From Leucoraja ocellata (taxonomy: Eukaryota), in NCBI GenBank assembly GCA_036785375.1, contig JAWMAR010004569.1, positions 1 through 46,357 of the forward strand: DNA of 46,357 nucleotides. Reading direction: 5' to 3'. The stretch's first letter is position 1, and the number at the start of each line of letters is the position of its first letter. Below the pieces are notes generated by a model that did not search any database, was not told the origin of the DNA, and worked only from the letters and a program-made list of their open reading frames with translations. The translations under genes were made by a program, and so were the position numbers. Positions 14,381 to 37,217 of this stretch are shown here, in pieces.

Positions 14381-14507
14381 TCCATATATAATTAATGTCT
14401 GTGCCTATATCTGAACTGACAAAGCTCGGTTATTCAGGCGTGTAGTGGCCGGTGTTGAGAATGTTTTTTAGAACAGTAAAGACACATTTAAGGTAACGCA
14501 AACTTAC

Positions 14508-14840
14508 GTGTGACCGTGACATCTGTGCCGTGACCATTATATATTTCCCCTGGGAAAACACTCACTCGGCAGTAATACCTTCCTATATCGTTGACTTTGA
14601 GGTCAGTGATTTCGATGGATTATTTTAGAATTCCCGGTGAATTATTTTTCAGAACGCGACCATAATAGTCGCCGCTCGTGTTGGAAACGGCACGAGTTTC
14701 CACGTCTTTGTACCAACTAAAGGCCCCAACTGAACTGCTTGTGTTGCCAACAAATGCACAGTTTAGCCGCACAGTCCCGCCTTCAGTAACTGTGATCTGC
14801 TTCGGTGATTGTATGATCGATTCATCGGATCCAACAGCAC
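14508..14840 (-). pseudogene. NKp30-like VJ-type Ig V exon A1, disabled
   Basis: 333 nt; acceptor CAT instead of CAG; in-frame TAA at 14622-14620; donor C|gtaagt intact. Confidence 0.9.
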
Positions 14841-15294
14841 ATGAAACCAGAAATAATATTATAGTCTCGGCGCTGGCCTTTCGGCCCACCCCGTCAATGC
14901 CATCCATTACACCTATCTACACAATCCCATTTACTCGCGTTAGGATCATGGCCTTTCTCTGTCTCAGCGTTTCAAGTACTTGGCAAGACGCCTCTTAAAT
15001 GTCGTGAGACAACCCGGGCGTGGCAAACATTGACGCCAAGAGAGACAACCTGACTGCTCAACACCCGGCTTGAGATCTAACTATTCCTTTATTTATTCAT
15101 GTTTCATTCGCAAGAAGAAGAACTACAGCTATAAATCACCCCTGGTTTATGGAGGAGTCGGAGTGACTGGAGCGTGAATGTGAATTTAGAGGGAACTGGT
15201 TTGCTGTTCGATGGGGGAAAAATGGCTTCTTGCCTCGTTCTAGAAATGGGGATTTCGCCCACAATGGACAATAATCACTTTGGTTTAGTTTAGT

Positions 15295-15580
15295 TTAGAG
15301 ATACAGAGCGGATACAGGCCCTTCGGCCCACCGAGTCCGCTGCGATCAATGTTCCCAGCAAAATAATGCTATTCTACACACATTAAGGACAATTTAATTT
15401 TTTACCGAGGCCAATTTCCCTACAAACCAGTACGTCTTTGGAGTGTGGGAGGAAAACGGAGCTCCCGGTGAAACCCACACAGGGGGAACGTAAACTCCGT
15501 ACAGACAGAACCCGTAGTCAGGATCGAACCCGGCGTCCCTGGCGCTGTAAAGCAGCAACTCTACCGCCGCGCCACCGTGT
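15295..15580 (-). mobile_element. tRNA-derived SINE
   Basis: Reverse complement of the 3955 family; A and B boxes. Confidence 0.85.
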
Positions 15581-15789
15581 TGCCCCTCTCTCCAGCTTTC
15601 CTGAACCCACTGTACTTTCCTTACAGTTCCTCCATCTTTCCCGCCAGATTATGGTCATATGTTTGTTTTTCCGATTTTGTGCTTCAACATTCATGGATGT
15701 TACAGCGTCGAAAGCGACCATGAAATCGGCACGGATTATATCAAATGATGCACCGATTCTCTCTTCATCCCGTACACTGCTGCACAGTC

Positions 15790-16430
15790 TCTGGCCCAGA
15801 GTAGGGGAATCGAGGACCAGAGAACACAGGTTCAAGGTGAAGGGGGAAAGATTCAGTAGGAATCCGATGGGTAATTTTTTCGCCTTGAGGGCGCTCGATT
15901 TATGGAACAAGCTGCCAGAGGAGGTCGTTGAGGCTGGGACATTCCCATCGTTTAAGAAGCAGTTGGACAGGTACATGGATAGGACATGTTTGGAGGGATA
16001 TGGACCAGGCGCAGGCAGTTGGGACTAGTGTAGATGGGACATTGTTGGCCGGTGTGGGCAAGTTGAGCCGAAGGGCCTGTTTCCACACTGTATCACTCTG
16101 TGACTGATCTTGCACATTGGAATTTAAAAAAAAGAAATATAGAAAACTAGGTGCAGACGTAGGCCATTCGGCCCTTCCAGCCAGCACCGCCATTCAATAT
16201 GATCATCTGAAATCAGTACCCCGTTCCTGCATTCTCCCCATATCTCTTGATTCCGTTAGCCCTAAGAGCTAAATCTCCCTCCCTCTTTAAAACATCCAGT
16301 GAATCAGCCTCCACTGCCTTCTGTGGCAGAGAATTCCACAGATTCACAACTCTCTGGGTGAAAAGATGTGTCCTCGTCTCCGTTCTAAATGGCCTCCCCC
16401 TTATTTTCAAACTGTGTCCCCTGGTTCCTA
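15790..16430. mobile_element. Two tail-to-tail CR1-type 3' ends
   Basis: Paralogous to 13920-14380. Confidence 0.75.
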
Positions 16431-16530
16431 AATCGGATCTGACAACGTTTCGTTGTTGAGACGTGCGGTGGCCGGTGTTAAGGATGTTTTTGAGAACAGT
16501 AAAGACAAAGTTAAGATAACGCAAACTTAC

Positions 16531-16860
16531 GTGTGACTGTGACATCTGTGCCGTGACCATTATATATTTCCCCTGTGAAAACACGCACTCGGCAGTAATA
16601 CCTTCCTGTCTCGTTCATTTTGAGGTCAGTGATTTCGATGGACACTTTTAGAATCCCCGGTGAAATACTTGTTCGAACGCGGCCATAATAGTCGCCGCTC
16701 GTGTTGGAAACGGCCCGAGTTTCCACGTCTTTGTACCAACTAAAGGCCACAATTATATTCGGGTTCCCAACAAATGCACAGTTTAGCCGCACAGTCCCGC
16801 CTTCAGTAACTGTGATCTGTTTCGGTGATTGTATGATCGATTCATCGGATCCAACAGCAC
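16531..16860 (-). CDS. NCR3: NKp30/NCR3-like VJ-type Ig V exon B1, intact
   Basis: 330 nt, phase 1-1, ttccag|...C|gtaagt; canonical C, W, E-x-G-x-Y-Y-C and GHGTDVTV G strand; resembles NKp30 (C.F...W.KD...V.N...GR...YYCRV.V...G.GT...V). Family-level call, orthology not shown. Confidence 0.8.
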
Positions 16861-16879
16861 CTGGAACCAGAAATAATAT

Positions 16880-17355
16880 TTCTCCTGCATTGTCAGAGTG
16901 AGGCTAAATGCAAATTGGAGGAGCAGCATCTCATATTTGGTTTGGGCAGTTTACACCCCAGTGGTATGAATATTGATTTCTCTCACTTCAAGTAATTCCG
17001 GCATCCTCTCTCTCTCTCCCCCCCCCCCCCCCTCCCACCCCCACCCAAGTCGCACCAGCTTCTCGTTATCACCCAACACACAGCGAACAATGGCCTGTTA
17101 CCTTTATCATGGTTACTTTTCTCAGACAATCATGACAATAAAACTCATTTGAATCTTGACTGCTGACACCCTTTGCATATATGTCATTCATTATATCTCT
17201 CTATATCATCGCCTATATCTCTCGTTTCCCTTATCCCTAACCAGTCTGAAGAAGGATCTCGACCCAAAACGTCACACATTCCTTCTCTCCAGAGATGCTT
17301 CCTGTCCCGCTGAGTTTCTCCAGTTTTTTGTGTCTGCAGTTCCATCCAACACACA
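16880..17355 (+). mobile_element. Penelope-like 3' fragment with terminal repeat and degenerate hammerhead
   Basis: LLHCQSEAKCKLEEQHLIFGLGSLHPSGMNIDFSHFK*; CTGAAGA...AAAACGTC at 17246-17273. Confidence 0.7.
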
Positions 17356-17427
17356 AAGGCCAGTGGAGTCGGATTAAGAATGTTTTTTAAGAACAGTAAA
17401 GATAAAGTTAAGGTTCTGCAAACTTAC

Positions 17428-17751
17428 GTGTGACCGTGACATCTGTGCCGTGACCATGATATGTTCCCACTGCGAAAACACTCACTAGGCAGTAATACCT
17501 TCCTGTATCGTTCATTTTGAGGCCAGTGATTTCGATGGACACTTTTAGAATTCCCTGTGAATTATTTTTCAGAACGCGACCATAATAGTCGCCGCTCCTG
17601 TTGGAAACGGCACGAGTTTCCACGTCTTTGTACCAACTAATGAAACCAATTGCCTTGGCAACAAATGCACAGTTTAGCCGCACAGTCCCGCCTTCAGTAA
17701 CTGTGATCTGCTTCGGTGATTGTATGATCGATTCATCGGATCCAACAGCAC
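17428..17751 (-). CDS. NCR3: NKp30/NCR3-like VJ-type Ig V exon C1, intact
   Basis: 324 nt, phase 1-1, tttcag|...C|gtaagt; GAVGSDESIIQSP...CAFVAKAIGFISWYKD...YYCLVSVFAVGTYHGHGTDVTVT. Confidence 0.8.
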
Positions 17752-17918
17752 CTGAAACCAGAAAGAATATTATAGTCTCGGTGCTGGCCTTTCGGCCCAC
17801 CCCGTCAATGCCATCCATTACACCTATCTACACAATCCCATTTACTCGCGTTAGGATCATGGCCTTTCTATGTCTCAGCGTTTCAAGTTCCTGGCGAGAC
17901 GCCTCTTAATGTCGGGAG

Positions 17919-18356
17919 NNNNNNNNNNNNNNNNNNNNNNNNNNNNNNNNNNNNNNNNNNNNNNNNNNNNNNNNNNNNNNNNNNNNNNNNNNNNNNNNNN
18001 NNNNNNNNNNNNNNNNNNNNNNNNNNNNNNNNNNNNNNNNNNNNNNNNNNNNNNNNNNNNNNNNNNNNNNNNNNNNNNNNNNNNNNNNNNNNNNNNNNNN
18101 NNTCTCTCTATCCNNNNNNNNNNNNNNNNNNNNNNNNNNNNNNNNNNNNNNNNNNNNNNNNNNNNNNNNNNNNNNNNNNNNNNNNNNNNNNNNNNNNNNN
18201 NNNNNNNNNNNNNNNNNNNNNNNNNNNNNNNNNNNNNNNNNNNNNNNNNNNNNNNNNNNNNNNNNNNNNNNNNNNNNNNNNNNNNNNNNNNNNNNNNNNN
18301 NNNNNNNNNNNNNNNNNNNNNNNNNNNNNNNNNNNNNNNNNNNNNNNNNNNNNNNN
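17919..18356. other. N gap or masked tract with a CT island; hides the 3' end of the leader exon
   Basis: Ns; same position as the gap in unit 2. Confidence 0.95.
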
Positions 18357-18387
18357 GAAAGAACCAAGCGACCACACTCCACTGCAT
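18357..18387 (-). CDS. Signal-peptide exon (partial) of cassette 1: MQWSVVAWFF(L)...
   Basis: AAAGATGC start context; upstream acceptor tttgtgtttgtttccgcccacag at 18403-18402; hydrophobic; coding part identical in unit 2. Confidence 0.65.
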
Positions 18388-18861
18388 CTTTGAACGACTA
18401 CCTGTGGGCGGAAACAAACACAAAAACAGGCCAGGCAGCATCTGCGGAAGAAATGGGAAATCCGTCTGAAGAGAGGTCCAGACCCGAAACGTCGCCTGTC
18501 CATATTCTCCAGAGATGCTTCCTGACGCGCTGATCCATTTTGTCACGTTACAACCACAAACGCAAATGTATTTTATTGGGATTTTATGTGATAGACCAAC
18601 ACAAAGTGGCGCATAATTGTGAAGTGGAAGGAAAATTATACATGGTTTTCAATTTTTTTACAAATAAAAGACTTCCGGTGGCGGCATGCTTTGCTAGCAG
18701 TCGCAAATCTTTTAGCTCCGCTGAAAAAATCGCGATTTTTCGCGTTAAAATCGGGTTTGGAGGTCGGGACCGATCTTAAAGACTTACCGGAGTTTCATGT
18801 CGCGGTGCTGATGACGTCATCAGTAAGCGCCGTGGATTTAACGGAGGGAAACCGATTTTAA

Positions 18862-19875
18862 ATGAAAAAGACATCTACAGGTCAGAGCCCTCAGAGGAAA
18901 GTGTCAAAACAACTGCTGAAGTCTCAAGAACACCAAGAAACTGCAACACTAACCTCTGGAGTGGATTCTGGAATGGCTACACGATCTAAGACTGAGTTGA
19001 TCACAAAAGAGAAAACTGAAATGGAGGAATTAAAGAACTCGGTAAGAGATTTGAAAGAAGATGTGAAAGCTGGAAATTTAAACTTGATTGCTGGTAATGA
19101 AAAAATACTCGCGGGCATTGGCGCTCTGCAAAAAAAAGTTGATGATGTGCAAGAAGAGCTCACGGGGAAAATTACTAAGGTGGCAGAAGAGTCCACAAAG
19201 ATGTTTGAGGCTGTGCATGAAACTATTTCCGCAAATGCAAATGCAGTGAAAGATTTGGAAGCTGTTGTGGAAGAGATGGCTGGAGAAATGGAGGCAATGA
19301 AGTTAGAATTAGACAGCCTCAAGAGCCAATTTACAAAAGTATCTGATAAATGTGTTGATCTAGAAGCTCGCTCAAGACGTCAAAATATACGAATACGTGG
19401 AGTGAAAGAGGGAGCTGAGGGGGAAAACGCCCGTGAGTTCACTGCCAATTTAATTAAACATGTACTCAATTTACCTGAAGCACCAGTAATTGAAGAAGCA
19501 CATCGAGTACCTAGATTCAAGCCAAGATTCACTGGAGAACAAGCCTACCCACGACAGATTATAGTCAAACTTCGGGATATCCCAACAGTGGAAGCGCTGT
19601 TGAAAAAAATTAAATACGGAGAGAAGATGATATATGGAAATGATTCTATTAAACTTCTACGGGACTACCCTTATGAGATTGTGCTAAAGAGAAGAAAGTT
19701 CTCACAGACCAGAGAAGTTCTCTACGGTGTCAAGGGCGTCATATCTGGTGTGTTTTATCCGGCGAGGATGGGTATCACTTTTAAGGGAATCTCAAAAACA
19801 TTCACCAATCCGCTAGAATCTCTTAAATACGCAAAAGAAATCGTTGTTAAGGCAGCAGCAGCAGAAGAAGATTGA
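18862..19875 (+). CDS. L1 ORF1p (coiled coil, RRM, CTD)
   Basis: 337 aa open; LEARSRRQNIRIRGVKEG, IEEAHRV, PRQIIVKL, FYPARM. Confidence 0.93.
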   Translation: MKKTSTGQSPQRKVSKQLLKSQEHQETATLTSGVDSGMATRSKTELITKEKTEMEELKNSVRDLKEDVKAGNLNLIAGNEKILAGIGALQKKVDDVQEELTGKITKVAEESTKMFEAVHETISANANAVKDLEAVVEEMAGEMEAMKLELDSLKSQFTKVSDKCVDLEARSRRQNIRIRGVKEGAEGENAREFTANLIKHVLNLPEAPVIEEAHRVPRFKPRFTGEQAYPRQIIVKLRDIPTVEALLKKIKYGEKMIYGNDSIKLLRDYPYEIVLKRRKFSQTREVLYGVKGVISGVFYPARMGITFKGISKTFTNPLESLKYAKEIVVKAAAAEED

Positions 19876-20805
19876 TCACCAGACGTCAGGACTTAATTAA
19901 TGTGCTTATTCCCCTAACAAGAATATTAGTAGAAAATGTAAAAAGTGAATACCATCAAGATTTAAAAATGGCTATTTGCAGCAGATTTTCCATGAGGCTT
20001 GTCTAGACATTATAATCTTCTCTCGAATTTAATTCAAGGACATCCGATGTTTAAACCAGGAAAACAGATATAAGCACATCTGCCGAAGCTGAGAGAGAGT
20101 GAAAAACATCACATGGCCTTCCTACAGATTTTCATAGATTGTGTAAATAGAGAATTATTACTAACTAATTACTAACAATACTAATACATAATACATAAAC
20201 TGTTATTAATAAATATGTGTTATAACGTAGATAACATTGTAATCTCACAGGTTTCGCAGCTCGAGTGGGGAGGGGAAGAGACTCAGGCACCTGGCTTAAT
20301 TCCAGGAGCCTGACTCTGGTTAACCCTTTCAACGAACAGCTCACTTTTAACAATACTAAAACCAATTACAAATAGTTAAGAGATAAAGAGAGGAATATGT
20401 GTAACTGAATAATTGATTAGATTTGATAAGTCGGAATGAAACATATATATATATATATATATACTGTAATGGGGTGAAATAGAACTGATTTGGAAACGGT
20501 ACCTACCCCCTAGGTTATGAGCAATAAATTCAGCGGGGCTAACCTCATAACAGCTACGCCGGAAGCAATATTGATGTCATATCCCACAGACGAGTGGGCC
20601 ACTCACTACGGTGTAGGAAATCCAGACACCGTACATCTATTTTATATACCTTTTTTTTTTACTACCACAATATGTCACATTTGTGTGTTTTTTTTTCAAG
20701 GACAATCGCAGAGGGGTACTACCAAGAAAGTCTATAATATAAATGCTTCCAAAATAACCAGAGTCCTGAGGTATGGATGCACCACAATAAGTACGGTCAT
20801 TAAAA

Positions 20806-23800
20806 TTGGTAAAAATGTATGACGACAATCAAAGGAAAATGGGAGGAGTCACACTATGTAGTTGGAATATAAGGGGTATTAATGAACCTATTAAAAGGGG
20901 CAAGATACTAGCTCAGTTGAAAGCATACAACACGGACATTTCGTTCCTACAGGAAACTCATCTTAAACATCAAGATCAGACGAGATTGAGGGCTAACTGG
21001 ATAGGCCAAACATTTCACTCTTCATTCACTTCTAAATCTAGAGGCACTGCAATTATTATCCGTAAAGGAATCCCATTTAAATCAAAGAATACTATTTCAG
21101 ATAAGGAAGGGAGATATCTTATAGTAGCAGGAGAGATCAATAATATGCCAATTACGCTGGTAAATATATATGCGCCCAATTTTGATAACCCTCAATTTTT
21201 TACTAAAATTCTGAATAAAATTGCCGAATTTAATTATCAAAATGTTATAATCGGAGGGGACTTCAACTGTGTTTTAGACCCTTATTTAGATAAATCGATG
21301 CAAAAACAAAAAGGTAATATGAAATCTAAAACCAGTGAACTCTTACATACATATATGGAAAACACAAATATATCAGATGTATGGAGGATTGCAAATCCGA
21401 CGGGAAGGGACTACTCATTCTATTCAACGGTGCATAAAACATATTCACGGATAGATTATTTTCTTGTGGATACAAAATTAATTACACACACTATGAATCC
21501 TAAATACCACATTAATGCGATTTCAGATCACTCTCCTTTAACCTTTGTTTTAAAATTAGAAGGAATGTCCATGAATAAATCGTTCTGGAGGTTTAATTCG
21601 CAACTTTTAAAAGACCCACAAGGGAGTATATATCTAAAAAAACAGATGGACTTATTCTTTGAGATAAATGATACACCAGATATATCCCCCACGCTATTAT
21701 GGGAATCCTTTAAAGCATTTATTAGAGGAGTCATTATTTCATTTCAAGCTTACCAAAATAAAAAGAATAAGAAAGAACAAAGATATTTAGAAGAACAAAT
21801 AAAACAATTAGATATAGATAATGCTAAAGATCCAACTATGGATAAACATAATAAAATCCTATTATTGAAATTCAAGCTGAATAAATTATTGTCAGAGAAA
21901 GTTATAACATTATTCCAAGTTACAAAACAAGAACACTTTGAATTCGGGGACAAACCCCACAAACTCTTAGCACGCCAGTTGAAAAAACGGGAAAAAGAGA
22001 ATGCAATACTAAAGATTAAATCAGATAGTGGGGAATTATTAACACTACCCAAGGATATCAATAAAAGATTTGCTCAATTCTACGAAAATTTATATACATC
22101 TAAAACGTCAATAGATAATAATAAAATTTCAGAATTTCTGGAAGATTGTAACCTTCCAAAATTAGAATTGAGGGAACAAGAGGAACTGGGAGCAATAATT
22201 ACTTCTAAGGAGATAGAAGACACAATAAAAACACTAAAGAATGGTAAAACACCAGGACCAGATGGATTCAGTAGTGAATTCTATAAAGCCTTTTATGATA
22301 TAGTTACCCCACGATTACAGAAAATGTATACACACGCTTTTAAAGAGCAAAGCTTACCCGAAACATTAGCAGAATCAACGATCACATTAATACTTAAAAA
22401 AGATAAAAACATAGAAGAACCAGGTTCATATAGAGCTATTGCTTTGTTAAATACGGATCAAAAAATAATAGCGAAAACACTAGCCAGTAGATTAAGCAGG
22501 TACGTTAGTAGATTAATAAATGGAGATCAAACAGGATTTATACCTAAGAGACATTCATTTAATAATTTGAGACGTTTGCTTAACATAATGCACTCACATA
22601 AACCTCACGACCAAGAGTTATCTATTATCTCACTGGATGCAGAAAAAGCGTTTGATCAAGTAGAATGGGATTATATGATTAAAGTATTGCAAAAATTCCA
22701 ATTGGGAGAAAATTTTATCGCATGGATAAAACTATTATATAACAAACCTACGGCTAGAATATTAACTAATAATATCTTATCCTCGAAATTTGAACTATCA
22801 AGGGGCAATAGACAAGGATGCTCATTATCACCGCTGCTATTTGCTTTGATAATTGAACCCCTTGCTGAAAAAATAAGAACTCATCCGGATATTTATGGTT
22901 ATAATACAAAATACTCAAAGAATAAAATATCCCTATATGCCGATGATGTACTACTGTACATCACAAAACCACAAATTAGTATACCAAACATATTAAACTT
23001 AATAGAGGACTTTGGATCCTTTTCAGGATATAGAATAAATTGGAACAAAAGTGAAATTATGTCGATAAAACCAAAAGACTCAACACAGCTTCGGAAATTT
23101 CCCTTTAAAATAGCCACAGAAAAATTCAAATATTTGGGAATTGAAATTACTAGAAATTACCAGGATATGTTTAAAGCCAATTATAATCCTTTACTCAAGA
23201 AATTGAATAATCTGATTAAATTCTGGAAAACACTTCCGATGTCCTTAATAGGCAGAATAAATGCTATTAAAATGGTTTTCTTACCACAAATTCTATACCT
23301 ATTTCAATCAATACCTATATACCTCCCAAAAAAGTTTTTCAAAAAATTGGACTCAGACATTACAAATTTTATATGGGATTATAAATCCCATAGAATACAA
23401 ATAGCACACCTTAATAAACGAAAAGAGCTGGGGGGTCTAGCGCTCCCTAATTTTATGTATTATAACTGGGCAGTAAATATTAAAAATATGATTCACCTGC
23501 TGGACAATTCTGCACAGCAGGCGGACTGGATGGTAATGGAAAAAGGGGACTGCTCCCCGAGTAATATAGGAGCGATCATCCTCTCACCAACAAATTTGAA
23601 TAATAAAAATTATAATAAAAATCCAATTATACATAACACAATAAGAACATGGAAACAAATAAAACAGACTCTAAAATTAAGAAACCTATCTCTTTTAATA
23701 CCAATAGTCAATAATCCATCGTTTAAACCATCAATCATAGACAAATCATTTATACAATGGGAAAGAATGGGAATTAAAACGCTCGAAGATCTGTATGAAT

Positions 23801-24606
23801 TAGGGAATTTACTGTCATTTCAACAACTACAACTGAAATATAATTTGAAAAATAACCAATATTTTAAATATCTTCAAATCTGTGATTATTTGAAAAAATA
23901 CACAAAAGACTATCATAATATGTCTTCCGACTTATTGGATGAAGCAATGAAGACCAAGGCGGAATCAGCTAATTTAATATCGTACTTATATAACATCATT
24001 TTAAACATAGAAATACCCACAACAGATGGAATTAGAAAAGATTGGGAACAAGAATTAGCTATAAAAATCTCAAAAGGGACCTGGGATAATCATTTACTAC
24101 AGGTGCATAAATGTTCGATCAACGTACGGCATACGCTCATCCAATTTAAAACATTACATAGATTATATTATTCAAAAACTAAATTAAATAAAATCTTCCC
24201 TAATGTTTCACCAATCTGTGATAAATGCCTATGTCAAGAAGCTACCATAGCGCACTCTTTTGTTTTTTGTACAAAAATCCAAAAATTCTGGTATGAAATA
24301 TTTGATATTTTTTCAAAATTGATCAAAATAAAACTGGTACCAAAACCAGAATGGATTATCTTCGGAATATCGGAAGATAACCCTGAATTAAACATGTTTC
24401 AGAAGAATTTATTTAATTACGGGCTAATAATGGGAAAAAAGCTTATACTTAAATTCTGGAAAAATGCGCCGACACCAACAATAAAAATGTGGATATCAAA
24501 TATGTTTGAAACATTACACCTGGAAGAGATGAGATTCCTCCTAGCAGGTAAAGCAGACCAATTTCAAAAGACGTGGTCTATGTTTCTGGACCTATTACAA
24601 GTATGA
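20806..24606 (+). CDS. L1 ORF2p (APE endonuclease, reverse transcriptase, CCHC); true start probably the ATG at 20815 or 20839
   Basis: Uninterrupted; SWNIRG, LQETH, GGDFN, SRIDY, SDH, PGPDG, LDAEKAFD, RQGCSLSP, YADD, CDKC...HSFVFC. Confidence 0.96.
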   Translation: MVKMYDDNQRKMGGVTLCSWNIRGINEPIKRGKILAQLKAYNTDISFLQETHLKHQDQTRLRANWIGQTFHSSFTSKSRGTAIIIRKGIPFKSKNTISDKEGRYLIVAGEINNMPITLVNIYAPNFDNPQFFTKILNKIAEFNYQNVIIGGDFNCVLDPYLDKSMQKQKGNMKSKTSELLHTYMENTNISDVWRIANPTGRDYSFYSTVHKTYSRIDYFLVDTKLITHTMNPKYHINAISDHSPLTFVLKLEGMSMNKSFWRFNSQLLKDPQGSIYLKKQMDLFFEINDTPDISPTLLWESFKAFIRGVIISFQAYQNKKNKKEQRYLEEQIKQLDIDNAKDPTMDKHNKILLLKFKLNKLLSEKVITLFQVTKQEHFEFGDKPHKLLARQLKKREKENAILKIKSDSGELLTLPKDINKRFAQFYENLYTSKTSIDNNKISEFLEDCNLPKLELREQEELGAIITSKEIEDTIKTLKNGKTPGPDGFSSEFYKAFYDIVTPRLQKMYTHAFKEQSLPETLAESTITLILKKDKNIEEPGSYRAIALLNTDQKIIAKTLASRLSRYVSRLINGDQTGFIPKRHSFNNLRRLLNIMHSHKPHDQELSIISLDAEKAFDQVEWDYMIKVLQKFQLGENFIAWIKLLYNKPTARILTNNILSSKFELSRGNRQGCSLSPLLFALIIEPLAEKIRTHPDIYGYNTKYSKNKISLYADDVLLYITKPQISIPNILNLIEDFGSFSGYRINWNKSEIMSIKPKDSTQLRKFPFKIATEKFKYLGIEITRNYQDMFKANYNPLLKKLNNLIKFWKTLPMSLIGRINAIKMVFLPQILYLFQSIPIYLPKKFFKKLDSDITNFIWDYKSHRIQIAHLNKRKELGGLALPNFMYYNWAVNIKNMIHLLDNSAQQADWMVMEKGDCSPSNIGAIILSPTNLNNKNYNKNPIIHNTIRTWKQIKQTLKLRNLSLLIPIVNNPSFKPSIIDKSFIQWERMGIKTLEDLYELGNLLSFQQLQLKYNLKNNQYFKYLQICDYLKKYTKDYHNMSSDLLDEAMKTKAESANLISYLYNIILNIEIPTTDGIRKDWEQELAIKISKGTWDNHLLQVHKCSINVRHTLIQFKTLHRLYYSKTKLNKIFPNVSPICDKCLCQEATIAHSFVFCTKIQKFWYEIFDIFSKLIKIKLVPKPEWIIFGISEDNPELNMFQKNLFNYGLIMGKKLILKFWKNAPTPTIKMWISNMFETLHLEEMRFLLAGKADQFQKTWSMFLDLLQV

Positions 24607-25747: not shown

Positions 25748-28390
25748 GTGAGAACTCGACTGCTCTGCATGAGTAGCCGAGGAGGACGTCACCAGACGGC
25801 AGCAGCCGAGAAGAGACGAACCATATCCATGCTGTGTGTGTATTTTCTACCACCACCTACGCTGAAACACAAGAAGAGCAAGCCCACAGGAAGGCCCAGG
25901 TGCCGCTAGTGTGAATATTGCTGCTAAGGAAAAACTCATGTTTTGCACAAAAGACATATATTATCTACATTTTCATTTAATAAGTTGATGTTGTTATTTT
26001 CTACAACTAAAGGACTTTAAGTGTTTTGCACAAGAGACTGAGATATAATGTGCATTTCATTTATGTTGTTTACTTACATTTCCTTATTGAAGACCATTGA
26101 TACTCACACTGTGTTGATATTGAGAATTAGTTTATTGATGGTTACACTGTAAACATTCTGTTAAAACAAGCAGTACTCATAGTAATTTGAAGGTGCATTT
26201 CTGTTACTTAACAAGTGTTTAATGCATATGTAACTTACCTGTGGAAGAGTTGATACCTTTATTTGTCTAATTATCACTCAGAGTGATTTAAGTTGATAAC
26301 ACTATAACATTTATTTATTAATTAGGTACTTACTCAACATAAGAAAATATTAGATTTAAACCAAACTAAAGTAAACCAAGTAAAGTGTCAGAGTTTGAGC
26401 TTTCCCCTGAAAGTGACAGAGAAGATGATGAAGGCGATGACACGAAACAGCACTGCCCAGACGCACAACCACAAACGACCAAAGGCACTGGAGATGATAT
26501 CCACACTTCCTCACAAGAGCCACAAAGAGGCCAAAGAGTCCACAAGCTAACGGAAAAGGGCCAAGAACTGCACGATGAGCAAGTAAGAAAGGTTGCACAC
26601 CGTTTAAGTGTGAGCTACGAGAAGTGGAAGGCTGTCATTAAGGACGCCAAAGGGGCGCTGAGTGGTCAATGCTCAAACAACCTGCTGAATGAACACATCA
26701 CCAAGGTAAGCAATGCTTCAAAGAATCTGAACGCTGTTTATGAAGAGCTGAGACACATCGGCATTCTAGATCATGACACACGTCGCAGAGTAGACACATG
26801 TGAAGCACTAACAAAGAAGATAATCAAAACTGCAAGAGGTTATCTAAACACGGGAAAGAGTGAATGTCAAGTGGATGAAGAACAAGGTGTTAAAGATACA
26901 GAATCTGTGTTCAAGTCTGCAGCCTCAGATAAGATGAGCATCAAATCTCACCGCACCAAATCCTCCTGGTGAAGAAAGGATATATTATCTGCGAAGGTAT
27001 GTGGGTGGAGCTGCCAAGAAGGCCATAGAGAGTTACTTTCTGCTAGGCACAGAGTCAGCCTATCATGCAGCGTGGACCATCCTAGAACAGAGATATGGCA
27101 ATCCATTCCTCATCGCCAAAGCCTTCAGAGACAAGCTTGATTCATGGCCCAAGATAAGCTCCAAAGGCAGTTTAGAACTTCAAGATCTCACTGACTTCCT
27201 TCGCATCTGTGAGGCCGCCATGTCTCAGATTAGAGGTCTTGAGGTACTCAATGACTGCAACGAGAATCAGAAAATGCTTGCTAAACGTCCAGACTGGCTG
27301 ACCTCAAGATGGAACAGGAAAGTCATAAAAGTGGAAGAACAAAGTCACAAGTTCCCAAGCTTCAGCCAATTCGTCAAGTTCCTCACACGTGAAGCAAAAA
27401 TTGCTTGCAACCCGATAACGTCCCTCTACGCTCTAAAACCAAGTGAAGTTGAGAAGAGCAAGGCTTCAATGAACAGAGGTCTTGGAGCAAAGGTATTGGT
27501 AACAAACTCTGATGAGAAGGCTGTCGCCACAAGCTGTGTGTTCTGTGAGAGGGAAGGTCACAGTCTACACAAGTGTTATAAATTCATGGATGAGACGGTC
27601 TCTGAGCGAGTCACGTTTGTTCAAGAAAGGAAGTTGTGCTTTGGCTGTCTGAAGTCTGGCCATCGGTCAAAGGAATGTGAAAACAGAATGATCTGCAATA
27701 CATGTGAAAGGAGACATCCAACTTGCCTCCATGACAATCGCACCAAGGAAGAAAGGATGTTAACAAGGCCTGATGAAGCAAGAGACCGTGAGCTGTCAAC
27801 GGAAGGCAAGATGAACCGATCACAAGATAAGACAACAAGAACCTCACCGGAGGCAACACCCAATAGAGTCATCCAGCATGTCAAAGACACCCATACGTCC
27901 ACCATCATCCCAGTGTGGGTGTCAGCCACAAGTGAGCCTAATCGTGAAGTTCTTGTGTATGCACTTCTGGATACACAGAGTGACACAACCTTTCCCCTAG
28001 AAGACACTGCAAAAGCTCTACACGTGAAGAACAAACCAGTTCAGCTAAAGCTCTCCACAATGGCTTCAAGAAACACAGTTGTGTCCGATTGGCTACAACT
28101 GTCCTCAAGCTCTCGTCCCAAGACAAGTGCTACCTGGTGAAGAAAATAAGCCCTTTGCCCGGAGAACCGACTTGGGCTGGAGTGTAGTTGGCTATGGCAA
28201 CCTATGTCTCGATTATGGAGATGCTATTGGAGTGAGTCACCAGGTTATCGTGAAGCAAGTGATATCAGGTGTTCAGTCCTCTTCAAACCTCACAAGCGAA
28301 GTGCATTATGTCCGTAGAACACAGATCAAGGAAGTAGTCTCACCTGCAGCTGTCATCAAGGTGCTGGAAGCTGACTTTGTGGAAAGAATT
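25381..28390 (+). mobile_element. BEL/Pao LTR retrotransposon, 3' truncated (gag and protease relic)
   Basis: Three Zn knuckles CVFC..H..C, CFGC..H..C, CNTC..H..LH; protease ALLDTQSDTTF; no RT, IN or 3' LTR. Confidence 0.9.
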
Positions 28391-29845
28391 TCAGAGTCAA
28401 TTATTAAAGATGTAATAATGGGGCATTTGGATAGCAGGAAAAGGATTAGTCCAAGTCAACATGGATTTATGAAAGGGAAATCATGCTTGACGAATCTTCT
28501 GAATTTTTTAAGGATGTGACGTAAAATGGATGAAGAGGAGCCAGTGGACGTAGTGTATCTAGACTTTCAGAAAGCCTTTGATAAGGCCCCGCACGGGAGA
28601 CTGGTGGCTAAAATTAGAGCGCATGGTATTGGGGGTAGGGTGTTGACATGGATAGAAAATTTGTTGGCAGACAGGAAGCAAAGAGGAGGAGTGAACGTGT
28701 CTTTTTCAGATTGGCAGGCAGTGGCGAGTGGAGTGCCACAAGGCTCGATGTTGGGGCTACAACTGTTTACCATATATATTAATGATTTGGAAGAGGGAAT
28801 TAGGAGCAACACTAGCAAGTTTGCGGATGACACAAAGCTGGGAGGCAGCGTGAACTGTGAAGAGTATGTTAGGCGGTTGCAGGGTGACCTGGACAGGTTG
28901 AGTGAGTGGGCAGATGCGTGGCAGATGCAGTATAATATAGATAAATGTGGGGTTATACACTTTGGCGGAAAAACAAGGGGGCAGATTATTATCTCAATGG
29001 GGTTAGGTTAGGTAAGGGGGAGGTACAGTGAGACCTGGGTGTCCTTGTACACCTGTCACTGAAAGGTGGCATGCAGGTACAGCAGGCAGTGAAGAAAGCT
29101 GATGGAATGGTAGCCTTCATTACAAGATGATTTCAGTATCGGAGTAGAGAGGTTCTTCTGCAGTTGTATAGGGCTCTGGAAAGACCAAATCTGGAGTATT
29201 GTGTACAGTTTTGGTCTCCGAATTTGAGGGAGGACATCCTTGTGATTGAGGCAGTGCAGCATAGATTCACGAGATTGATCCCTGGGATGGCGGGACTGTC
29301 ATATGAGGAAAGATTGAAAAGACTAGGCTTATATTCACTGGAGTTTAGAAGGATGAGGGGTTATCTTATAGAAACATATAAAAGTATAAAAGGACTGGAC
29401 AAGCTAGATGCAGGAACACATTCCCAATGTTGGGCGAGTCCAGAACCCGGGGCCACGCAGTTTTAGAATAAAGGGGAGGCATTTAAGACTGAGGCGAGAA
29501 AAAAACGTTTTCACCCAGAGAGTTGTGAATTTGTGGAATTCCCTGCCACAAAGGGTAGTGGAGGCCAAGTCACTGGATGGATTTAAGAGAGAGTTAGATA
29601 GAGCTCTAGGGGCTAGTGGAATCAATGGATATGGGAAGAAGGCAGGCACGGGTTATTGGTTACACAGAAAAGCTGGAGAAACTCAGCGGGTGCAGCAGCA
29701 TCTATGGAGCGAAGGAAATAGGCAACGTTTCGGGCCGAAACCCTTCTTCACGGGTTATTGATTGGGGACGATCAGCCATGATCACAATGAATGGCGGTGC
29801 TGGCTCGAAGGGTCAAATGGCCTCCTCCTGCACGTATTTTATGTT
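28391..29845 (+). mobile_element. CR1 ORF2 3' half and 3' UTR, with a small Penelope-repeat insert at ~29660-29750
   Basis: YLDFQKAFDK, GVPQGS, FADDTKL; insert flanked by repeated CACGGGTTATTG. Confidence 0.9.
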
Positions 29846-29847
29846 TT

Positions 29848-30128: not shown

Positions 30129-30391
30129 TCGCCCTAATGACACTTGATTCTCACATGTACCTTGATGCAGTGAAATGCTTTGTTCTGCAGACAATCCGGC
30201 AATAACCATGTTCTCCACAGTTGCTGCTGCTCCTTTGGGATGTTGTGATCTTTTACTTGTGTTTATTCCTTGGGTTAATTTCAAACACTATTTCAGATTG
30301 TTTGTTAACACATTGCGGAGATTGGAAATGTTTTATCTGAGATCGGGTTGCAGTGAACGCTAAGGAGAGGAGCTGTAGGATTCTACAAGAC

Positions 30392-30938
30392 CAAGATCTG
30401 AGGAAGGATGTGCTGGCTCTGGAGAGGGTCCAGAGGAGATTTACAAGAATGATCCCAGGATTGAGTGGGTTAACATATGATGATCGTTTGACGGCACTGG
30501 GCCTGTACCAGCAGGAATTTAGAAGGATGAGAGGTGATGCCATTGACATTTACTGAACAGTGAAAGGCTTGGATAGAGTAGATGTGGAGATGATTATTCC
30601 ACTGACGAGAGAGTCTAGGACTCGAGGTAATAGCCTCAGAATTAAAGGAGGTTCTTTTCGGAAGGAGATGGGGAGAAATTTATTTAGTCAGAGGGTGGTG
30701 AATCTGTGGAATTCTTTGCCACAGAAGGTTGTGGATGTCAAATCAGTGGATATTTGTAAGGCAAAGATAGATAGATTATTGATTAGTACAGGTGTTAGAG
30801 GAATGGGGAGAAGGCAGGAGAATGGGGTTAGGAGGGAGATATAGATCAGTCATGATTGAATGGTGGAGTAGACTTGATGGACCAAATGGCCTAATTCTGC
30901 TCCTATCACTTATGACCTTATGACCTTATGACCTTATG
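30392..30938 (+). mobile_element. CR1 3' fragment
   Basis: Paralog of 9520-10065. Confidence 0.85.
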
Positions 30939-31159
30939 AGACACATACGTGTATTTACCGGTAGAATGGACATCCGTGTAACAGATGAGACTTATTACAG
31001 TTTCGGATACAGCAGGACTTTTAATAACTTTCCAGCGCACATCATTCAGCGATAAATTGTTGTCATTATATAAAGAACATGAACAAGGTCCTATTAACAA
31101 AGTGTCATTATTGGTCTATTATTACAACCTGTAACAATCTCTGTCAAATCACACCATTG

Positions 31160-31178
31160 TGGCGCCATCTTGTGGCCG
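31160..31178 (-). promoter_or_regulatory. CTCF/YY1-type motif, unit 2
   Basis: CGGCCACAAGATGGCGCCA. Confidence 0.6.
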
Positions 31179-31963
31179 AGACACCTTGGTGTCGAAGATT
31201 CGTTTGTTGAGCTCGAACTGTCGCCTGAACTGGCGTGATCTGACATTAGAAAATTCACAGTTCAATATTGGGTTCTAAGCTACCGAGATGGAGAATGAAG
31301 TCATGTTTCTCCAATGGCCTCACTCAGGCAATGGAGGAGACTCAGGGCAGAGGGGTCGGTGTGGGAATGGGAAGGAGAGTTAAAATGGTTTGAAACCGGG
31401 AGATCCATCAGGCAAATGGATCGCAAGAGGACTATCCGAAAATAGATACAAAAAGCTGGAGTAACTCCGCGGGTCAGGCAGCATATCTGGAGAAAAGGAA
31501 TGGGTGATGTTTCAGGTGAAGACGCTTCTTCACAGGGTATCGCCGCTTGGGGAGGTGCAGCAGGATCTGGGGGTCCTTGTTCATCAGTCAATGAAAGTGG
31601 GCATGCAGGTGCAGCAGGCAGTGAAGGAAGCGAATGACATGTTGGCCCTTATAACAAGAGGAGGTGAGTATAGGAGCAAAGAGGTCCTTCTGCAGTTGTA
31701 CAGGGCCCTAGTGAGACCACACCTGGAGTATTATCCGCAGTTGTGGTCCCCTAATTTGAGGAAGGACATTCTTGCTATTGAGGGAGTGCAGCGTAGGTTT
31801 ACAAGGTTAATTCCCGGGATGGCGGGACTGTAATATGCTGAGAGAATGGAGCGGCTGGGCTTGTATACTGTAGACCAAATATTGTCTGTTGTCTATTGTC
31901 TAATGGTTTGCGTTTGAAATGTAACCACTCTGACTTGAATCTGTTGTTGTCAGGATCGAACAA

Positions 31964-32146
31964 ACAACAAGGCAATGTGGAGTTTTAATGAGTGTAAGAT
32001 TTCACAAATTACATTATCCCAAATGGCCCACAACAGTATCAGCACAGCTGACTGAGCTAATGTTGATTCAGTAATGAGTTTGCTTTTCATGGTTTGACCT
32101 GTTGCATGAGTTGATTCATATATGGAGGGAGTTCAACACTTATGGT
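31964..32146 (-). other. Predicted terminal (3' UTR) exon of cassette 2
   Basis: Acceptor at 32148-32147; ATTAAA at 31989-31984. Confidence 0.6.
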
Positions 32147-32887
32147 CTGTGAAAATAAAATAGATATATTATTATACCACATGTACAGGCACAAAAACAT
32201 TAATACCATTGAACACAATTGACTACATTATTGTTATTAAAGTTCTTGTCAAGTATGTGTCCACATAGCTCCTAGTCATAGAGTCATGGAGTGATACAGC
32301 GTGGAAACAGGATCTTATGGCCCACACTCCCCACACCGGCCAACATGTCTCAGCTACACTAAACCCACCTATCCATGTACCATCCAAGTCTTGTATGAGC
32401 TCCTTATTTCTGGCCAGGCTCGGTCTAGTTTTCCCTGTCATGTCGCCTTTGTTATGTTGCAGTAAGTCTACGTTGCAAGATTCAAGAGGGTTTGCACTAG
32501 TTACAACTTTGTTGTTGGTTTTGTTGATTATATTTTATCTAAGTTTGTTGTACCGACAACCGGACAATGGAATTCTTACTGGCAGCAGCGTAACAGGGCT
32601 GTACATACAACACACTTAGATAAAATATAATAAACAAAACCAACAATAAATGTGTATCTGGTACAAACACCAAGATCCTTGGTGCAACACAAGGAAGTCC
32701 ATTCATGTTCATAGTTGAGCCTGGTCTTCTGTGTTGCTCAAGAGCCTGATAGTTGCAGGGAAGAAGCTGTTCTTGAACCTGGTGGTCACGGCTTTCAGAC
32801 TCAGATATCTTCTACTTGATGGTAGGAGTGTAATGAGAGCGTGGCCAAGGGAGTGTGGGATTTCAATGGAACTGAATGTATTGAAGA

Positions 32888-33068
32888 TTAGTTTAGTTTT
32901 TAATTTAAGTTAATTTAAGTTTAGTTTAGTTTCGCTTAGATTAGTTTAATTTTGTTTAGTTAGGTTTGTTTAAATTTAGTTAAGTTTGGTTTGGTTCGGT
33001 TTGGTTTGGTTTGGTTTGGTTCGGTATGGTTTGGTTTGGTTCGGTTCAGTTCAGTTTAGTTTAGTTTG
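32888..33068. repeat. (TTTAG/TTTGG/TTCGG)n microsatellite
   Basis: Direct observation. Confidence 0.9.
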
Positions 33069-33196
33069 TAAGGACAATATTTACACTGTGGTAGCACCTC
33101 GCAGGTGACAATAAAATGCACCATTGTCCAGTGACCTCAGCTGCTAATACAACCCACACATGGCGCTGGCAATCCTCTTACCGATTGACCAGCCTG

Positions 33197-33354
33197 TTAG
33201 GCTTCTTTTGTCCGGCTGGCAAATCCACAAGACTCCCATGAGCGGATGATGAAAACTATTATAACGTTGATCACAATGAACGTTGCAAGTTTCACTCCCA
33301 TTCCCAGCAGCTGCCAACGTAATCCCCATGCAGGGCTTTCTACAGGAATCCCGC
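33197..33354 (-). CDS. Transmembrane/cytoplasmic exon, cassette 2: (R)GIPVESPAWGLRWQLLGMGVKLATFIVINVIIVFIIRSWESCGFASRTKEA*
   Basis: Acceptor, frame, Lys, stop and post-stop donor (33181) all conserved. Confidence 0.85.
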
Positions 33355-33522
33355 CTGTAGGAATAAAACATCAAGTTCACCAATTACTTTCCCAGTTTAT
33401 TTCTGTCTCCTTCCATTCTTATACACCGAGATGTTCCCACTGTCATTGTAAACGTAGACCAATTCGCACACTTCAGTTGCCTGAACAGTAACAACAGATG
33501 TGGGAATCTTGCATAGAATTCA

Positions 33523-33774
33523 AAGTGCTGGAGTTAGTCAACGGGTCAGGCAGAATCTGTGGAGAACATGGATAGGTGACGTTTCACAGAGTGCTGGAGT
33601 AACTCAGCGGGTCAGGCAGCATCTGTGGAGAACATGGATAGGTAACGTTTCACAGAGTGCTGGAGTAACTCAGCGGGTCAGGCAGCATCTGTGGAGAATA
33701 TGGATAGGTGACGTTTCACAGAGTGCTGGAGTAACTCAGCGGGTCAGGCAGCATCTGTGGAGAACATGTATAGG
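33523..33774. repeat. 66-bp tandem repeat, ~4 copies
   Basis: Same unit as 12695-13340. Confidence 0.95.
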
Positions 33775-33861
33775 ATTCCTCTTCTTGCGTATGGCGTGCA
33801 TTGCCCAAAGTTGTTGGACAACTTGTTCTATTTGACCTTATTTGATTGTGTACACCAGGTT

Positions 33862-33916
33862 GATTGCATTCGTCGAAACAGGGCGGACCACGTGAAGGTT
33901 GCAATCTCCAAACCCC
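33862..33916 (-). ncRNA. Minimal HDV/CPEB3-like ribozyme motif (P2 and P3 perfectly paired) heading the short element at 33775-33917
   Basis: GGGGTTTGG-A-GATTGCA-ACC-TTCACGT-GGT-CCGCCCT-GT-TTCGA-CGAA-TGCAATC. Confidence 0.75.
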
Positions 33917-34942
33917 GTGTATAGGCGACATTTCAGGTCGGCACCCTTCTTCAGCATTCCACAATGTCACCTATCCATGTTCTCCACAGATGCTGCCTTG
34001 CCCGCTGAGTTACTCCAGCACTTTGAGTCTTTTTGTTTGTAACCCCGCATCTGCTGTTCCTTTTATCTCCGCCTTGATTGCTTGAGGGAATAGCCGAAGC
34101 AGCTACTGCCTCTGAGGGCCAGTATCCCGGCCTCAATGCTGACTGCCGGTGTGGAGTTTGCACGTTCTCCGTGTTATTCCCTGTGTTTCCCCTGGGGGTT
34201 ACTGCTTTCTCTCTCATCCCAAAGACGTGCGTCCTGATAGGTAATGAACAGGTGTATTTTACCCCTGATATATGGAGGAGTCGGAGTGAGCGGAGCGTGC
34301 ATGTGAATTAAGGAGGAACTAGATTGCGCTTCGATGGAAAGAATAGTCGGTGTATGGAGCAAGCTGCCAGAGGTCGTTGAGGCTGGGACTATCCCATCGT
34401 TTAAGAAGCAGTTGGACAGGTACATGGATAGGACAGGTTTTGTGGGGTATTGACCAGGCGCAGGCAGGTGGGACTAGTGTAGCTGGGACATTGTTGGCCG
34501 GTGTGGGCAATAGACAATAGACAATAGGTGCAGGAGGAGGCCATTCGGCCCTTCAAGCCAACACCGCCATTCACTGTGATCATGGCTGATCATCCACAAC
34601 CAGTGCCCCGTTCCTGCCTTCTCCCCATATCCCTTGTCTCCGCTATCTTTAAATCTCTATCTAACTCTCTCTTGAAAGCATCCAGAGAACCGGCCTCCAC
34701 TGCCTTATGACGCTGAGAATTCCACAGATTCACAACTCTCTGGGTGAAAATGTGTTTTCTCATCTCAGTCCTAAATGGCCTACCCGTTATTCTTAAACTG
34801 TGTCCCATGGTTCCTCCATATATAATGAATGTCTGTGCTTAGATCTGAACTGACAAAGCTCGGCTGTTGAGGCGTGTGGTGGCCGGTGTTGAGAATGTTT
34901 TTTAGAACAGTAAAGACAAAGTTAAGGAAACGTAAAACTTAC

Positions 34943-35275
34943 GTGTGACCGTGACATCTGTGCCGTGGCCATTATATATTCTCCCTGGGAAAACACTCAC
35001 TCGGCAGTAATACCTTCCTGTATCGATCATTTTGATGTCAGTGATTTCGATGGATTCATTTAGAATTCCCGGTGAATTATTTTTCAGAACGCGACCAAAA
35101 TAGTCGCCGCTCGTGTTGGAAACGGCACGAGTTTCCACGTCTTTGTACCAACTAATGAACCCAATTGAACTGCTTGTGTTGCCAACAAATGCACAGTTTA
35201 GCCGCACAGTCCCGCCTTCAGTAACTGTGATCTGCTTCGGTGATTGTATGATCGATTCATCGGATCCAACAGCAC
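34943..35275 (-). pseudogene. NKp30-like V exon A2: frame open, splice acceptor mutated (CAT)
   Basis: 333 nt; CAFVGNTSSSIGFISW...YYCRVSVFPGRIYNGHGTDVTVT; donor intact. Confidence 0.8.
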
Positions 35276-35717
35276 ATGAAACCAGAAATAATATTATACT
35301 TTCGGCGCTGGCCTTTCGGCCCACCCCGTCAATGCCATCCATTACACCTATCTACACAATCCCATTTACTCGCATTAGGATCATGGCCTTTCTATGTCTC
35401 AGCGTTTCAAGTACTTGGCGAGACGCCTCTTAAATGTCGTGAGACAACCCGGGCCTGGCAGACATTGACGCCAAGAGACTGCTAAACACCCGGCTTGAGA
35501 TCTAACTATTCCTTTAGTTTATTCATGTTTCATTCGCAAGAAGAAGAAGTACAGCTGTAAATCACCCCTGGTTTATGGAGGAGTCGGAGTGACTGGAGCG
35601 TGAATGTGAATTTAGAGGGAACTGGATTGCTGTTCGATGGAAAAAATGGCTTCTTGCCTCGTTCTAGAAATGGGGATTTCGCCCACAATGGACATTAATC
35701 ATTTTGGTTTAGTTTAG

Positions 35718-36004
35718 TTTAGAGATACAGCGCGGATACAGGCCCTTCGGCCCACCGAGTCCGCTGCGATCAACGATCCCAGCAAAATAATGCTATTCTA
35801 CACACACTAGGGACAATTTATTTTTTTACCGAGGCCAATTAGCCTACAAACCAGTACGTCTTTAGAGTGTGGGAGGTAAACGGAGCTCCCGGTGAAACCC
35901 ACACAGGGGGAACGTAAACTCCGTACAGACAGAACCCGTAGTGAGGATCGAACCCGGGGTCCCTGGCGCTGTAAGGCAGCAACTCTACCGCCGCGCCACC
36001 GTGT
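35718..36004 (-). mobile_element. tRNA-derived SINE
   Basis: Paralog of 15295-15580. Confidence 0.85.
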
Positions 36005-36234
36005 TGCCCCTCTCTCCAGCTTTCCTGAACCCACTGTACTTTCCTTACAGTTCCTCCATCTTCCCCGCCAGGTTATGGTCATATGTTTTTTTCGCACAGA
36101 GGGCGCTCGATTTATGGAACAAGCTGCCAGAGGAGGTCGTTGAGGCTGGGACTATCCCATCGTTTAAGAAGCAGTTGGACAGGTACATGGATAGGACAGG
36201 TTTGGAGGGATATGGACCAGGCACAGGCAGTTGG

Positions 36235-36477
36235 GACTAGTGTAGATGGGACATTGTTGGCCGGTGTGGGCAAGTTGGGCCGAAGGGCCTGTTTCCACAC
36301 TGTATCACCCATGTGACTAGTGTAGATGGGACATTGTTGGCCGGTGTGGGCAAGTTGGGCCGAAGGGCCTGTTTCCACACTGTATCACTCTGTGACTAGT
36401 GTAGATGGGACATTGTTGGCCGGTGTGGGCAAGTTGGGCCGAAGGGCCTGCTTCCACACTGTATCACTCTGTGACTG
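36235..36477. repeat. ~80-bp tandem triplication of a LINE 3' end
   Basis: TGTAGATGGG recurs at 36241, 36321 and 36400; single copy in unit 1. Confidence 0.9.
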
Positions 36478-36885
36478 ATCTTGCACATTGTAATTTAAAA
36501 AAAAGAAACATAGAAAAATAGGTGCAGAAGTAGGCCATTCGGCCCTTCCAGCCAGCACCGCCATTCAATATGATCATCTGAAATCAGTACCCCGTTCCTG
36601 CATTCTCCCCGTATCTCTTGATTCCGTTAGCCCTAAGAGCTAAATCTAACTCCCTCTTTAAAGCATCCACTGCCTTCTGTGCAGAGAATTCCACAGATTC
36701 ACAACTCTCTGGGTGAAAAGATGTTTCCTCGTCTCCGTTCTAAATGGCCTACCCCTTATTTTCAAACTGTGTCCCCTGGTTCCTATATCTGATCTGACAA
36801 CGTTTCGTTGTCCAGGCGTGCGGTGGTCGGTGTTGGGGATGTTTTTGAGAACGGTAAACACGAAGTTAAGATAACGGAAACTTAC

Positions 36886-37217
36886 GTGTGACTGTGACAT
36901 CTGTGCCGTGACCATTATATACTTCCCCTGTGAAAACACGCACTCGGCAGTAATACCTTCCTGTCTCGTTCATTTTGAGGTCAGTGATTTCGATGCCACT
37001 TTTAGACTCCCCGGTGAAATACTTGTCCGAACGCGGCCATAATAGTCGCCGCTCGTGTTGGAAACGGCCCGAGTTTCCACGTATTTGTACCAACTAAAGG
37101 CCACAAATGAACTGATGGTGTTGCTAACAAATGCACAGTTTAGCCGCACAGTACCGCCTTCAGTAACTGTGATCTGTTTCGGTGATTGTATGATCGATTC
37201 ATCGGATCCAACAGCAC
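36886..37217 (-). pseudogene. NKp30-like V exon B2 with a 1-nt deletion (real frameshift or consensus error)
   Basis: 332 nt; AG and GT intact; deletion near 36996 relative to B1. Confidence 0.75.

Follow-up and report, generated by a model that had tools for sequence, protein, structure and literature searches.

What are the closely similar immunoglobulin (Ig) V exons that lie on contig JAWMAR010004569.1 of Leucoraja ocellata (assembly GCA_036785375.1), and which processes have made their coding sequences differ so unevenly? Throughout, the window means the whole stretch analysed, positions 1 to 46,357 of this contig. A six-frame search combined with self-BLAST of the window revealed five Ig V exons, all on the minus strand and 89-96% identical to one another, which are split between two tandem genes ~20 kb apart of the batoid NCR3/NKp30-like activating type. 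The order of exons is leader-C1-B1-A1-transmembrane (TM) in gene 1 and leader-B2-A2-TM in gene 2 (Table 1). The locus is probably the outcome of birth-and-death evolution in a family of activating NCR3/NKp30-like V exons, in which the ligand-binding face has diverged and cassettes have been exchanged.

Where the five exons differ is the first thing to be explained. Amino acids vary at 34 of 110 aligned positions, and the complementarity-determining regions CDR1 and CDR3 (limits IMGT-style) take 15 of their 19 positions against 19 of the 91 elsewhere (P=2.6e-6), CDR1 being variable at 9/9 positions and CDR3 at 6/10. The bias persists in the intact pair B1/C1 taken by itself (11/19 vs 10/91, P=2.8e-5). 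Codons 63-73 form a further cluster (8/11 variable, the limits having been picked after inspection of the data), and codons 1-30 show no amino-acid change at all (0/30, P=1.5e-6), the G strand likewise being unchanged. An earlier reading of this DNA made from its letters (hereafter the sequence-only reading) had quoted variants of the BC, D and FG regions between an invariant N-terminal framework and an invariant G strand, and every one of those variants, as well as the invariance, is found in the window. Its location of the diversity in CDR-like loops holds for CDR1 and CDR3 and fails for the CDR2-like C-C'-C'' stretch, which is not hypervariable (3/16); moreover, the LKNN/RTSI stretch that it took for a loop is the D strand in a structure model of B1 (predicted local distance difference test score 79.5, Ig V fold). 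With the D strand taken in and the CDR2-like stretch left out, the pattern fits "NKp30 ligand face" better than "CDR-like loops". According to Table II of PMC3135353, the contacts of human NKp30 with B7-H6 are Ile50, Gly51, Ser52, Val53, Leu80, Ser82, Phe85, Leu86, Glu111, Leu113 and Gly114. Once this set is transferred by alignment to NKp30, 8/11 contact-equivalent positions vary among the five exons (P=0.003) and 6/11 between B1 and C1 (P=0.006), the variable ones aligning with Ile50-Val53, Leu80, Phe85, Glu111 and Gly114 of the complex (PDB 3PV6), which supports the placement on a ligand-binding face.

Not all of these exons can be working receptors, as the sequence-only reading had taken them to be: intact V exons are B1 and C1 only, and 3/5 are disabled, A1 by a stop and its acceptor, A2 by its acceptor and B2 by a frameshift, the FG loop quoted for B2 being out of frame after the 1-bp deletion. 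The acceptor reads CAT in A1 and A2 vs CAG in the other V exons; no in-frame AG occurs within 60 nt upstream of A1 or A2, and the nearest in-frame AG lies 51 nt within the exon. Since all V exons are in phase 1-1, tandem use and exon skipping both preserve the frame, and A1, without an acceptor, would be skipped. Gene 1 would then most likely yield leader-C1-B1-TM or, through exon skipping, single-V forms, and gene 2 is probably dead. The private framework substitutions of A1 and A2 (V82, I85; F59, I80, I83) look like decay.

To which family do these exons belong? Pfam V-set is matched by 3/3 open V frames, and the V domain lies in a single exon of 324-333 nt that ends in a G strand with a GxG J-like motif. 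A family profile of 11 members searched against PDB found human NKp30 as its best single-domain match (61-64 bits), single T-cell receptor (TCR) and VHH domains reaching at most 50 bits and TCR alpha ~50; the cartilaginous-fish NCR3 family shares both the single-exon V with its GxG J-like strand and NKp30 as best single-domain PDB match. What speaks against this identity is that Foldseek ranked NKp30 20th among near-equal V domains for the B1 model; we rejected the fold search as an identity test, since NKp30, TCR and VNAR were not told apart by it. With B1 alone as query, NKp30 was absent from its top 60 matches. The closest relative found is LOC144602683 (P0004) of Rhinoraja longicauda, a leader-V-TM(K) protein whose V domain is 68% identical and whose leader and Lys-bearing TM exon match those of the window. 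Within a tree of 54 domains, mammalian NKp30 not being among its sequences, the window exons cluster with Rhinoraja P0004 at 99/98, inside a batoid clade that mixes Lys-TM and tyrosine-tailed forms, and form a clade with the annotated NCR3-like P0011, P0018, P0165 and P0166 at 99/93. Relatives in Hemitrygon, Pristis and Heterodontus carry the NCR3-like annotation too.

A Lys in the TM segment together with a short tyrosine-free tail is the pattern of activating receptors, and both TM exons of the window encode Lys (at the start of the segment in gene 1) and short tails without tyrosine. By analogy with known activating receptors, this Lys would serve for pairing with an ITAM (immunoreceptor tyrosine-based activation motif) adaptor. 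In humans NCR3 is a lone gene with a single V, and its TM segment carries Arg; the window genes differ from it in having Lys as the TM charge. The Rhinoraja model contains a single V, and its tail is longer by 8 residues. In both window genes a TAA stands at the Glu of the Rhinoraja protein, 8 codons early (12371-12369 and 33199-33197, minus strand), and the codons downstream of these early stops remain conserved. Genomes with Lys-TM relatives also contain tyrosine-tailed ones, one of which has the adjacent LOC number: the Rhinoraja neighbour LOC144602684 carries a tyrosine-motif tail, whereas no such exon was found in the window with 9 relatives as queries. In PMC12227049, NCR3 is presented as an MHC-linked VJ gene that does not rearrange, with nurse-shark accessions MT914154-914161. 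No major histocompatibility complex gene was recognised among the open reading frames (ORFs) of the window. V(D)J rearrangement was considered and rejected: a consensus-based scan for sites like the recombination signal sequence gave 2 weak hits (11107, 31979), none at V exons.

Is the divergence of the ligand face the work of positive selection? We consider this rather likely, and such selection would predate the death of the three copies. Our codon models were self-built, with stop and frameshift codons masked and 3/15 topologies tried. The ratio pN/pS is 2.65 for CDR1+3 and 0.40 for the framework, and in fixed-partition models with a partition-specific rate omega exceeded 1 in 18/18 fits (range 1.9-5.3; loops 2.6-4.8), also with indel-adjacent codons and the Ala-Phe/Phe-Ile (AF/FI) patch at codons 39-40 masked. 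Between B1 and C1, loop pN (13/35) is above the divergence of the flanking intron (12/71, p=0.02) and above exon pS (8/78, p=0.001). Partition tests with a shared synonymous rate were significant in 18/18 cases; we rejected them as sole evidence of selection, since the local rate is confounded with omega. Several results weigh against selection. With its own loop rate the partition test reached p<0.05 in 6/18 cases, and in 1/9 on the best exon tree, ((C1,A2),A1,(B1,B2)), which M0 preferred by 7 log units; M2a vs M1a gave p=0.42 on that tree and p=0.028 on each of two other topologies; the whole-exon mean pN/pS is 0.99; loop pN of B1 vs C1 compared with loop pS (2/13) gave p=0.14; and the sample consists of five sequences, three of them dead. 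The diversifying selection claimed by the sequence-only reading is suggested by the consistent omega and left short by the stricter tests.

Positive selection has a competitor, which we hold to be unlikely, namely that loops and an exposed D strand merely tolerate change, that the framework was purified or homogenised and that dead copies drifted, with omega above 1 arising from scarce synonymous changes, indel-adjacent alignment and recombination. Besides the M2a result and the 12/18 strict partition tests without significance, it can call on the family at large: across 19 related V domains, isoform duplicates included, the sites that vary in the window have higher entropy than the others (1.71 vs 1.16 bits, p=0.0007), so that structural tolerance accounts for part of the pattern, and the low exon pS between C1 and A1 (2%) against a 3' intron difference of 20% hints at homogenised exons. 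Yet the C-C'-C'' stretch varies across the family, with 1.41 bits, and is quiet here (3/16), and therefore tolerance alone does not fix the pattern; the constancy of omega, masked fits included, and the excess of B1-C1 loop pN over neutral flank divergence argue in the same direction, that is, for selection.

As to how the cassettes came to be mixed, recombination between them is in our judgement highly probable, and its main support is that flanks and exons disagree. By kilobases of flank and by their shared acceptor loss, A1 and A2 correspond to one another in position, yet the maximum-likelihood tree of the exons pairs A2 with C1. B2 combines a B-type exon and 3' flank with a 5' flank of A/C type: it differs from the A copies by 5-7% upstream and by 16-17% downstream (p=0.0009 and 0.02), the change from 5% to 17% against A1 being the one with p=0.0009. 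C1 differs from A by ~4% at upstream and silent sites, against 20% over the 50 nt of intron on the donor side (p=0.0003), a comparison that is short and adjoins an insertion. The gradients as a whole have p values of 0.0003-0.02, and the control pair A1 vs A2 has none (p=0.62). The data give better support to larger exchanges of cassette flank than to short tracts.

For a true short conversion tract we lean only slightly to the positive side. The sharing of codons 39-40 seen by the sequence-only reading is real, A1, B1 and B2 having GCC TTT and C1 and A2 having TTC ATT, and the tract, if converted from a copy seen here, would be below ~50 nt by the flanking markers. Recombination tests were run on columns 170-580, with 24 informative sites. 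Every tree requires clustered multi-base homoplasy, either at the AF/FI patch or at codon 73 plus the acceptor loss, and for the clustering of homoplasies with the same split a single tree gives P=0.02-0.03 when sites are independent and dinucleotide mutation is ignored; the evidence for short conversion comes down to this single 4-nt patch. Against the short tracts proposed by the sequence-only reading stand a test like GENECONV, which found a significant tract in 0/10 exon pairs, and a total homoplasy without excess over a single tree (P=0.33-0.69); a test like the pairwise homoplasy index gave p = 0.16, 0.009, 0.025 and 0.19 over 4 window sizes, below 0.05 in 2/4, an outcome that depends on the window. 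Support for the claim is weak and concerns one patch.

The alternative that there was no short conversion, the AF/FI patch being a parallel or multi-nucleotide mutation within one duplication history, strikes us as doubtful. Of 15 trees the best requires 4 additional steps, and 2.9-4.6 are expected on one tree with rate variation. An ancestor with Ala-Ile could have gained Phe39 in C1/A2 and Phe40 in A1/B: among the 19 related domains Ala39 is found in 11/19 and Ile40 in 12/19, and the changes Ala to Phe at 39 and Ile to Phe at 40 recur in other rays (Phe39 in 2, Phe40 in 2), which makes parallel change possible and also tells against conversion; in sequencing run X2, codon 40 starts with the Ile-type base in 8/8 contigs at the site. 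On the other hand, the clustered homoplasy is common to every tree, the shared states are identical at the codon level, and the flank gradients demand recombination regardless. We retain recombination between cassettes, with larger exchanges as its better supported part.

Could the patchwork, and perhaps the lesions, be assembly artefacts, alleles and paralogs having been mixed across a 95%-identical tandem array? This seems improbable. Four of 24 runs were aligned to 13400-17918, a region that leaves the leader and TM exons outside and in which interspersed repeats dominated the alignments. N gaps do lie between leader and first V in both units, the contigs are short and some of them mixed, one B1 contig has a B2-type base, and a contig matching the 5' end of C1 loses its alignment at the BC loop. 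Yet the two units are ~4% apart throughout (250-bp windows 0.8-9.2%, mostly 3-6%) and differ by a 6.3-kb insertion, and in run X1, which may be the source sample, contigs match B1 with 1-2 differences, and one contig of depth ~7 apparently keeps the A1 stop and two more private letters, as judged by subtraction of depths. The sole contig of run X2 over the A-type acceptor has AG, and the loss of the acceptor in A1/A2 therefore looks derived, as this contig suggests. Expression data say less. Bulk RNA (run X24, ~5% of the run read) gave a mean depth on the V exons of at most 3.3, run X22 gave ~0, and the few RNA reads that fell on the A-type exon had at least 4 differences each; among the 15 joints listed for 13400-17918, with 4917 more existing, none was a splice joint, which is a point against the favoured reading.

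Chicken Ig pseudogenes act as conversion donors. That the acceptor-less A exons are likewise a maintained reservoir, splice-dead intronic cassettes templating somatic or germline conversion and so rewriting the ligand-binding residues of expressed V exons, is very improbable: dead and live cassettes do share a gene, at distances of 0.6-2 kb and with near-identical 5' frameworks, and acceptor loss is common to both A copies, but their private framework substitutions are typical of decay, there is one such copy per gene only, the direction of transfer is indistinguishable and the reads examined lend no cDNA support. Were it true, it would provide an antibody-like route of diversification in a class of genes for which a likeness to the antigen-receptor precursor has been proposed, and only somatic templated change from dead cassettes would make the finding important.

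Table 1. Coordinates of the tandem units, exons and shared codons in the window
Feature	Position	Strand	Basis and details
Unit-1 block of tandem duplication	9267..18669		Self-BLAST; matches 30138-38490 at ~94-97% identity
Unit-2 block	30138..38490		Self-BLAST
Leader exon, gene 1 (visible coding part)	18357..18387	-	tblastn, Rhinoraja P0004 residues 1-10, 80% identity; ATG at 18387
V exon C1, intact	17428..17751	-	324 nt, AG acceptor, GTAAGT donor, phase 1-1; Pfam V-set E 9.9e-12
V exon B1, intact	16531..16860	-	330 nt, AG acceptor, GTAAGT donor; V-set E 1e-12
V exon A1, disabled	14508..14840	-	Codon 73 is TAA (14622-14620); CAT as acceptor, -1 base at 14841
Codons 39-40 of A1	14719..14724	-	GCC TTT (Ala-Phe), shared with B1, B2; = NKp30 Ser52-Val53
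TM/cytoplasmic exon, gene 1	12369..12526	-	tblastn, 71% to Rhinoraja P0004; frame and acceptor
Leader exon, gene 2	38179..38209	-	tblastn with Rhinoraja P0004; enters N gap 37399-38178
V exon B2, disabled	36886..37217	-	1-bp deletion near 36997
V exon A2, frame open, acceptor disabled	34943..35275	-	Acceptor CAT (-1 base at 35276)
Codons 39-40 of A2	35154..35159	-	TTC ATT (Phe-Ile), shared with C1; coordinates computed from exon start
TM/cytoplasmic exon, gene 2	33197..33354	-	Lys in TM; tblastn with Rhinoraja P0004; frame and acceptor

Beyond the two units of the table, self-BLAST detected a third, partial unit that starts near 43204 and continues past the right edge of the window. The 3' end of the gene 1 leader enters an N gap (17919-18356). 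A non-LTR retrotransposon of 6.3 kb (18669-25021, plus strand; LTR, long terminal repeat), L1-like by its layout, with ORF1 open over 337 aa and a 1271-aa ORF2 for endonuclease and reverse transcriptase, has inserted only at gene 1, ~280 bp upstream of its leader ATG, and near 38490 unit 2 has the empty site; its insertion could affect expression of gene 1, the sole intact gene. Each unit also holds broken LTR retrotransposons in the form of DUF1759 gag/protease-like fragments (26370-28519 and 40038-42142, plus strand), and the V-TM intron holds a 66-bp minisatellite of 9.8 copies in unit 1 (12696-13340) and 3.8 in unit 2 (33524-33774). The spacer between C1 and B1 (16880-17374) consists of ~500 bp of high-copy repeat, which has taken the place of C1's 3' flank and B1's 5' flank.

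How does this locus compare with known systems? Relative to cartilaginous-fish NCR3, it represents a recent skate-lineage expansion of near-identical V exons, 2-3 per gene and most of them disabled. At least 2 V domains were present in 11/33 of the relative proteins examined, and the layout with three V exons is no novelty, as a stingray leader-V-V-V-TM(K) model belongs to the subfamily of the window exons. This model, Hemitrygon akajei P0159 (annotated pIgR-like), has Ala-Phe at 39-40 in 2/3 domains; it differs in that its V domains cluster with stingray genes, hence an independent triplication, and it is known as a gene model only. Multi-V NKp30-like gene models (P0007/P0156/P0157, P0006, P0032, P0035, P0159) are met with in sharks, rays and frogs under the annotations pIgR-like, SIRP-like or turtle-like, and in Heterodontus one isoform is longer than another by roughly a domain. 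Paired receptors (KLRC, KLRA/Ly49, PIR, CEACAM) offer the other parallel, since PMC3210942 and PMC7042247 report tandem duplication, conversion or homogenisation of their ligand-binding domains; the difference is that here the V cassettes exchanging sequence belong to activating genes, with no inhibitory partner in the window. Pairs of batoid NCR3-like Lys-TM and tyrosine-motif forms (relatives P0005, P0012, P0014, P0166), the motif resembling the immunoreceptor tyrosine-based inhibitory motif, have V domains that cluster by lineage, for example Pristis P0165/P0166, which looks like paired-receptor homogenisation. Our literature search, with key papers lying outside its reach, turned up nothing published on batoid NCR3 that deals with selection or conversion, and novelty is not thereby shown.

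Taken as birth-and-death evolution, the history probably ran as follows. The germline, non-rearranging V exons stem from a skate-lineage expansion of activating NCR3/NKp30-like genes; V cassettes duplicated within the gene, and the whole gene was copied as a ~20 kb unit, as is directly visible in the window. While the copies were functional, the framework would have been constrained, and diversification would have fallen on the face made of BC loop and start of the C strand, D strand and FG loop, probably through positive selection for altered binding of ligands or pathogens, the clustering being observed and the selection suggestive. Unequal crossing-over and occasional germline conversion would have shuffled the flanks and one or more short patches, in part as seen in the gradients, and copies then decayed, in the birth-and-death manner of a paired-receptor family. 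Such a pattern is the usual one in rapidly evolving natural killer receptor families. For the evolution of natural killer receptors the locus is a useful data point with defined residues and not a new mechanism: fast turnover at NKp30-equivalent contacts suggests receptors that chase changing ligands or pathogens, as paired receptors do.

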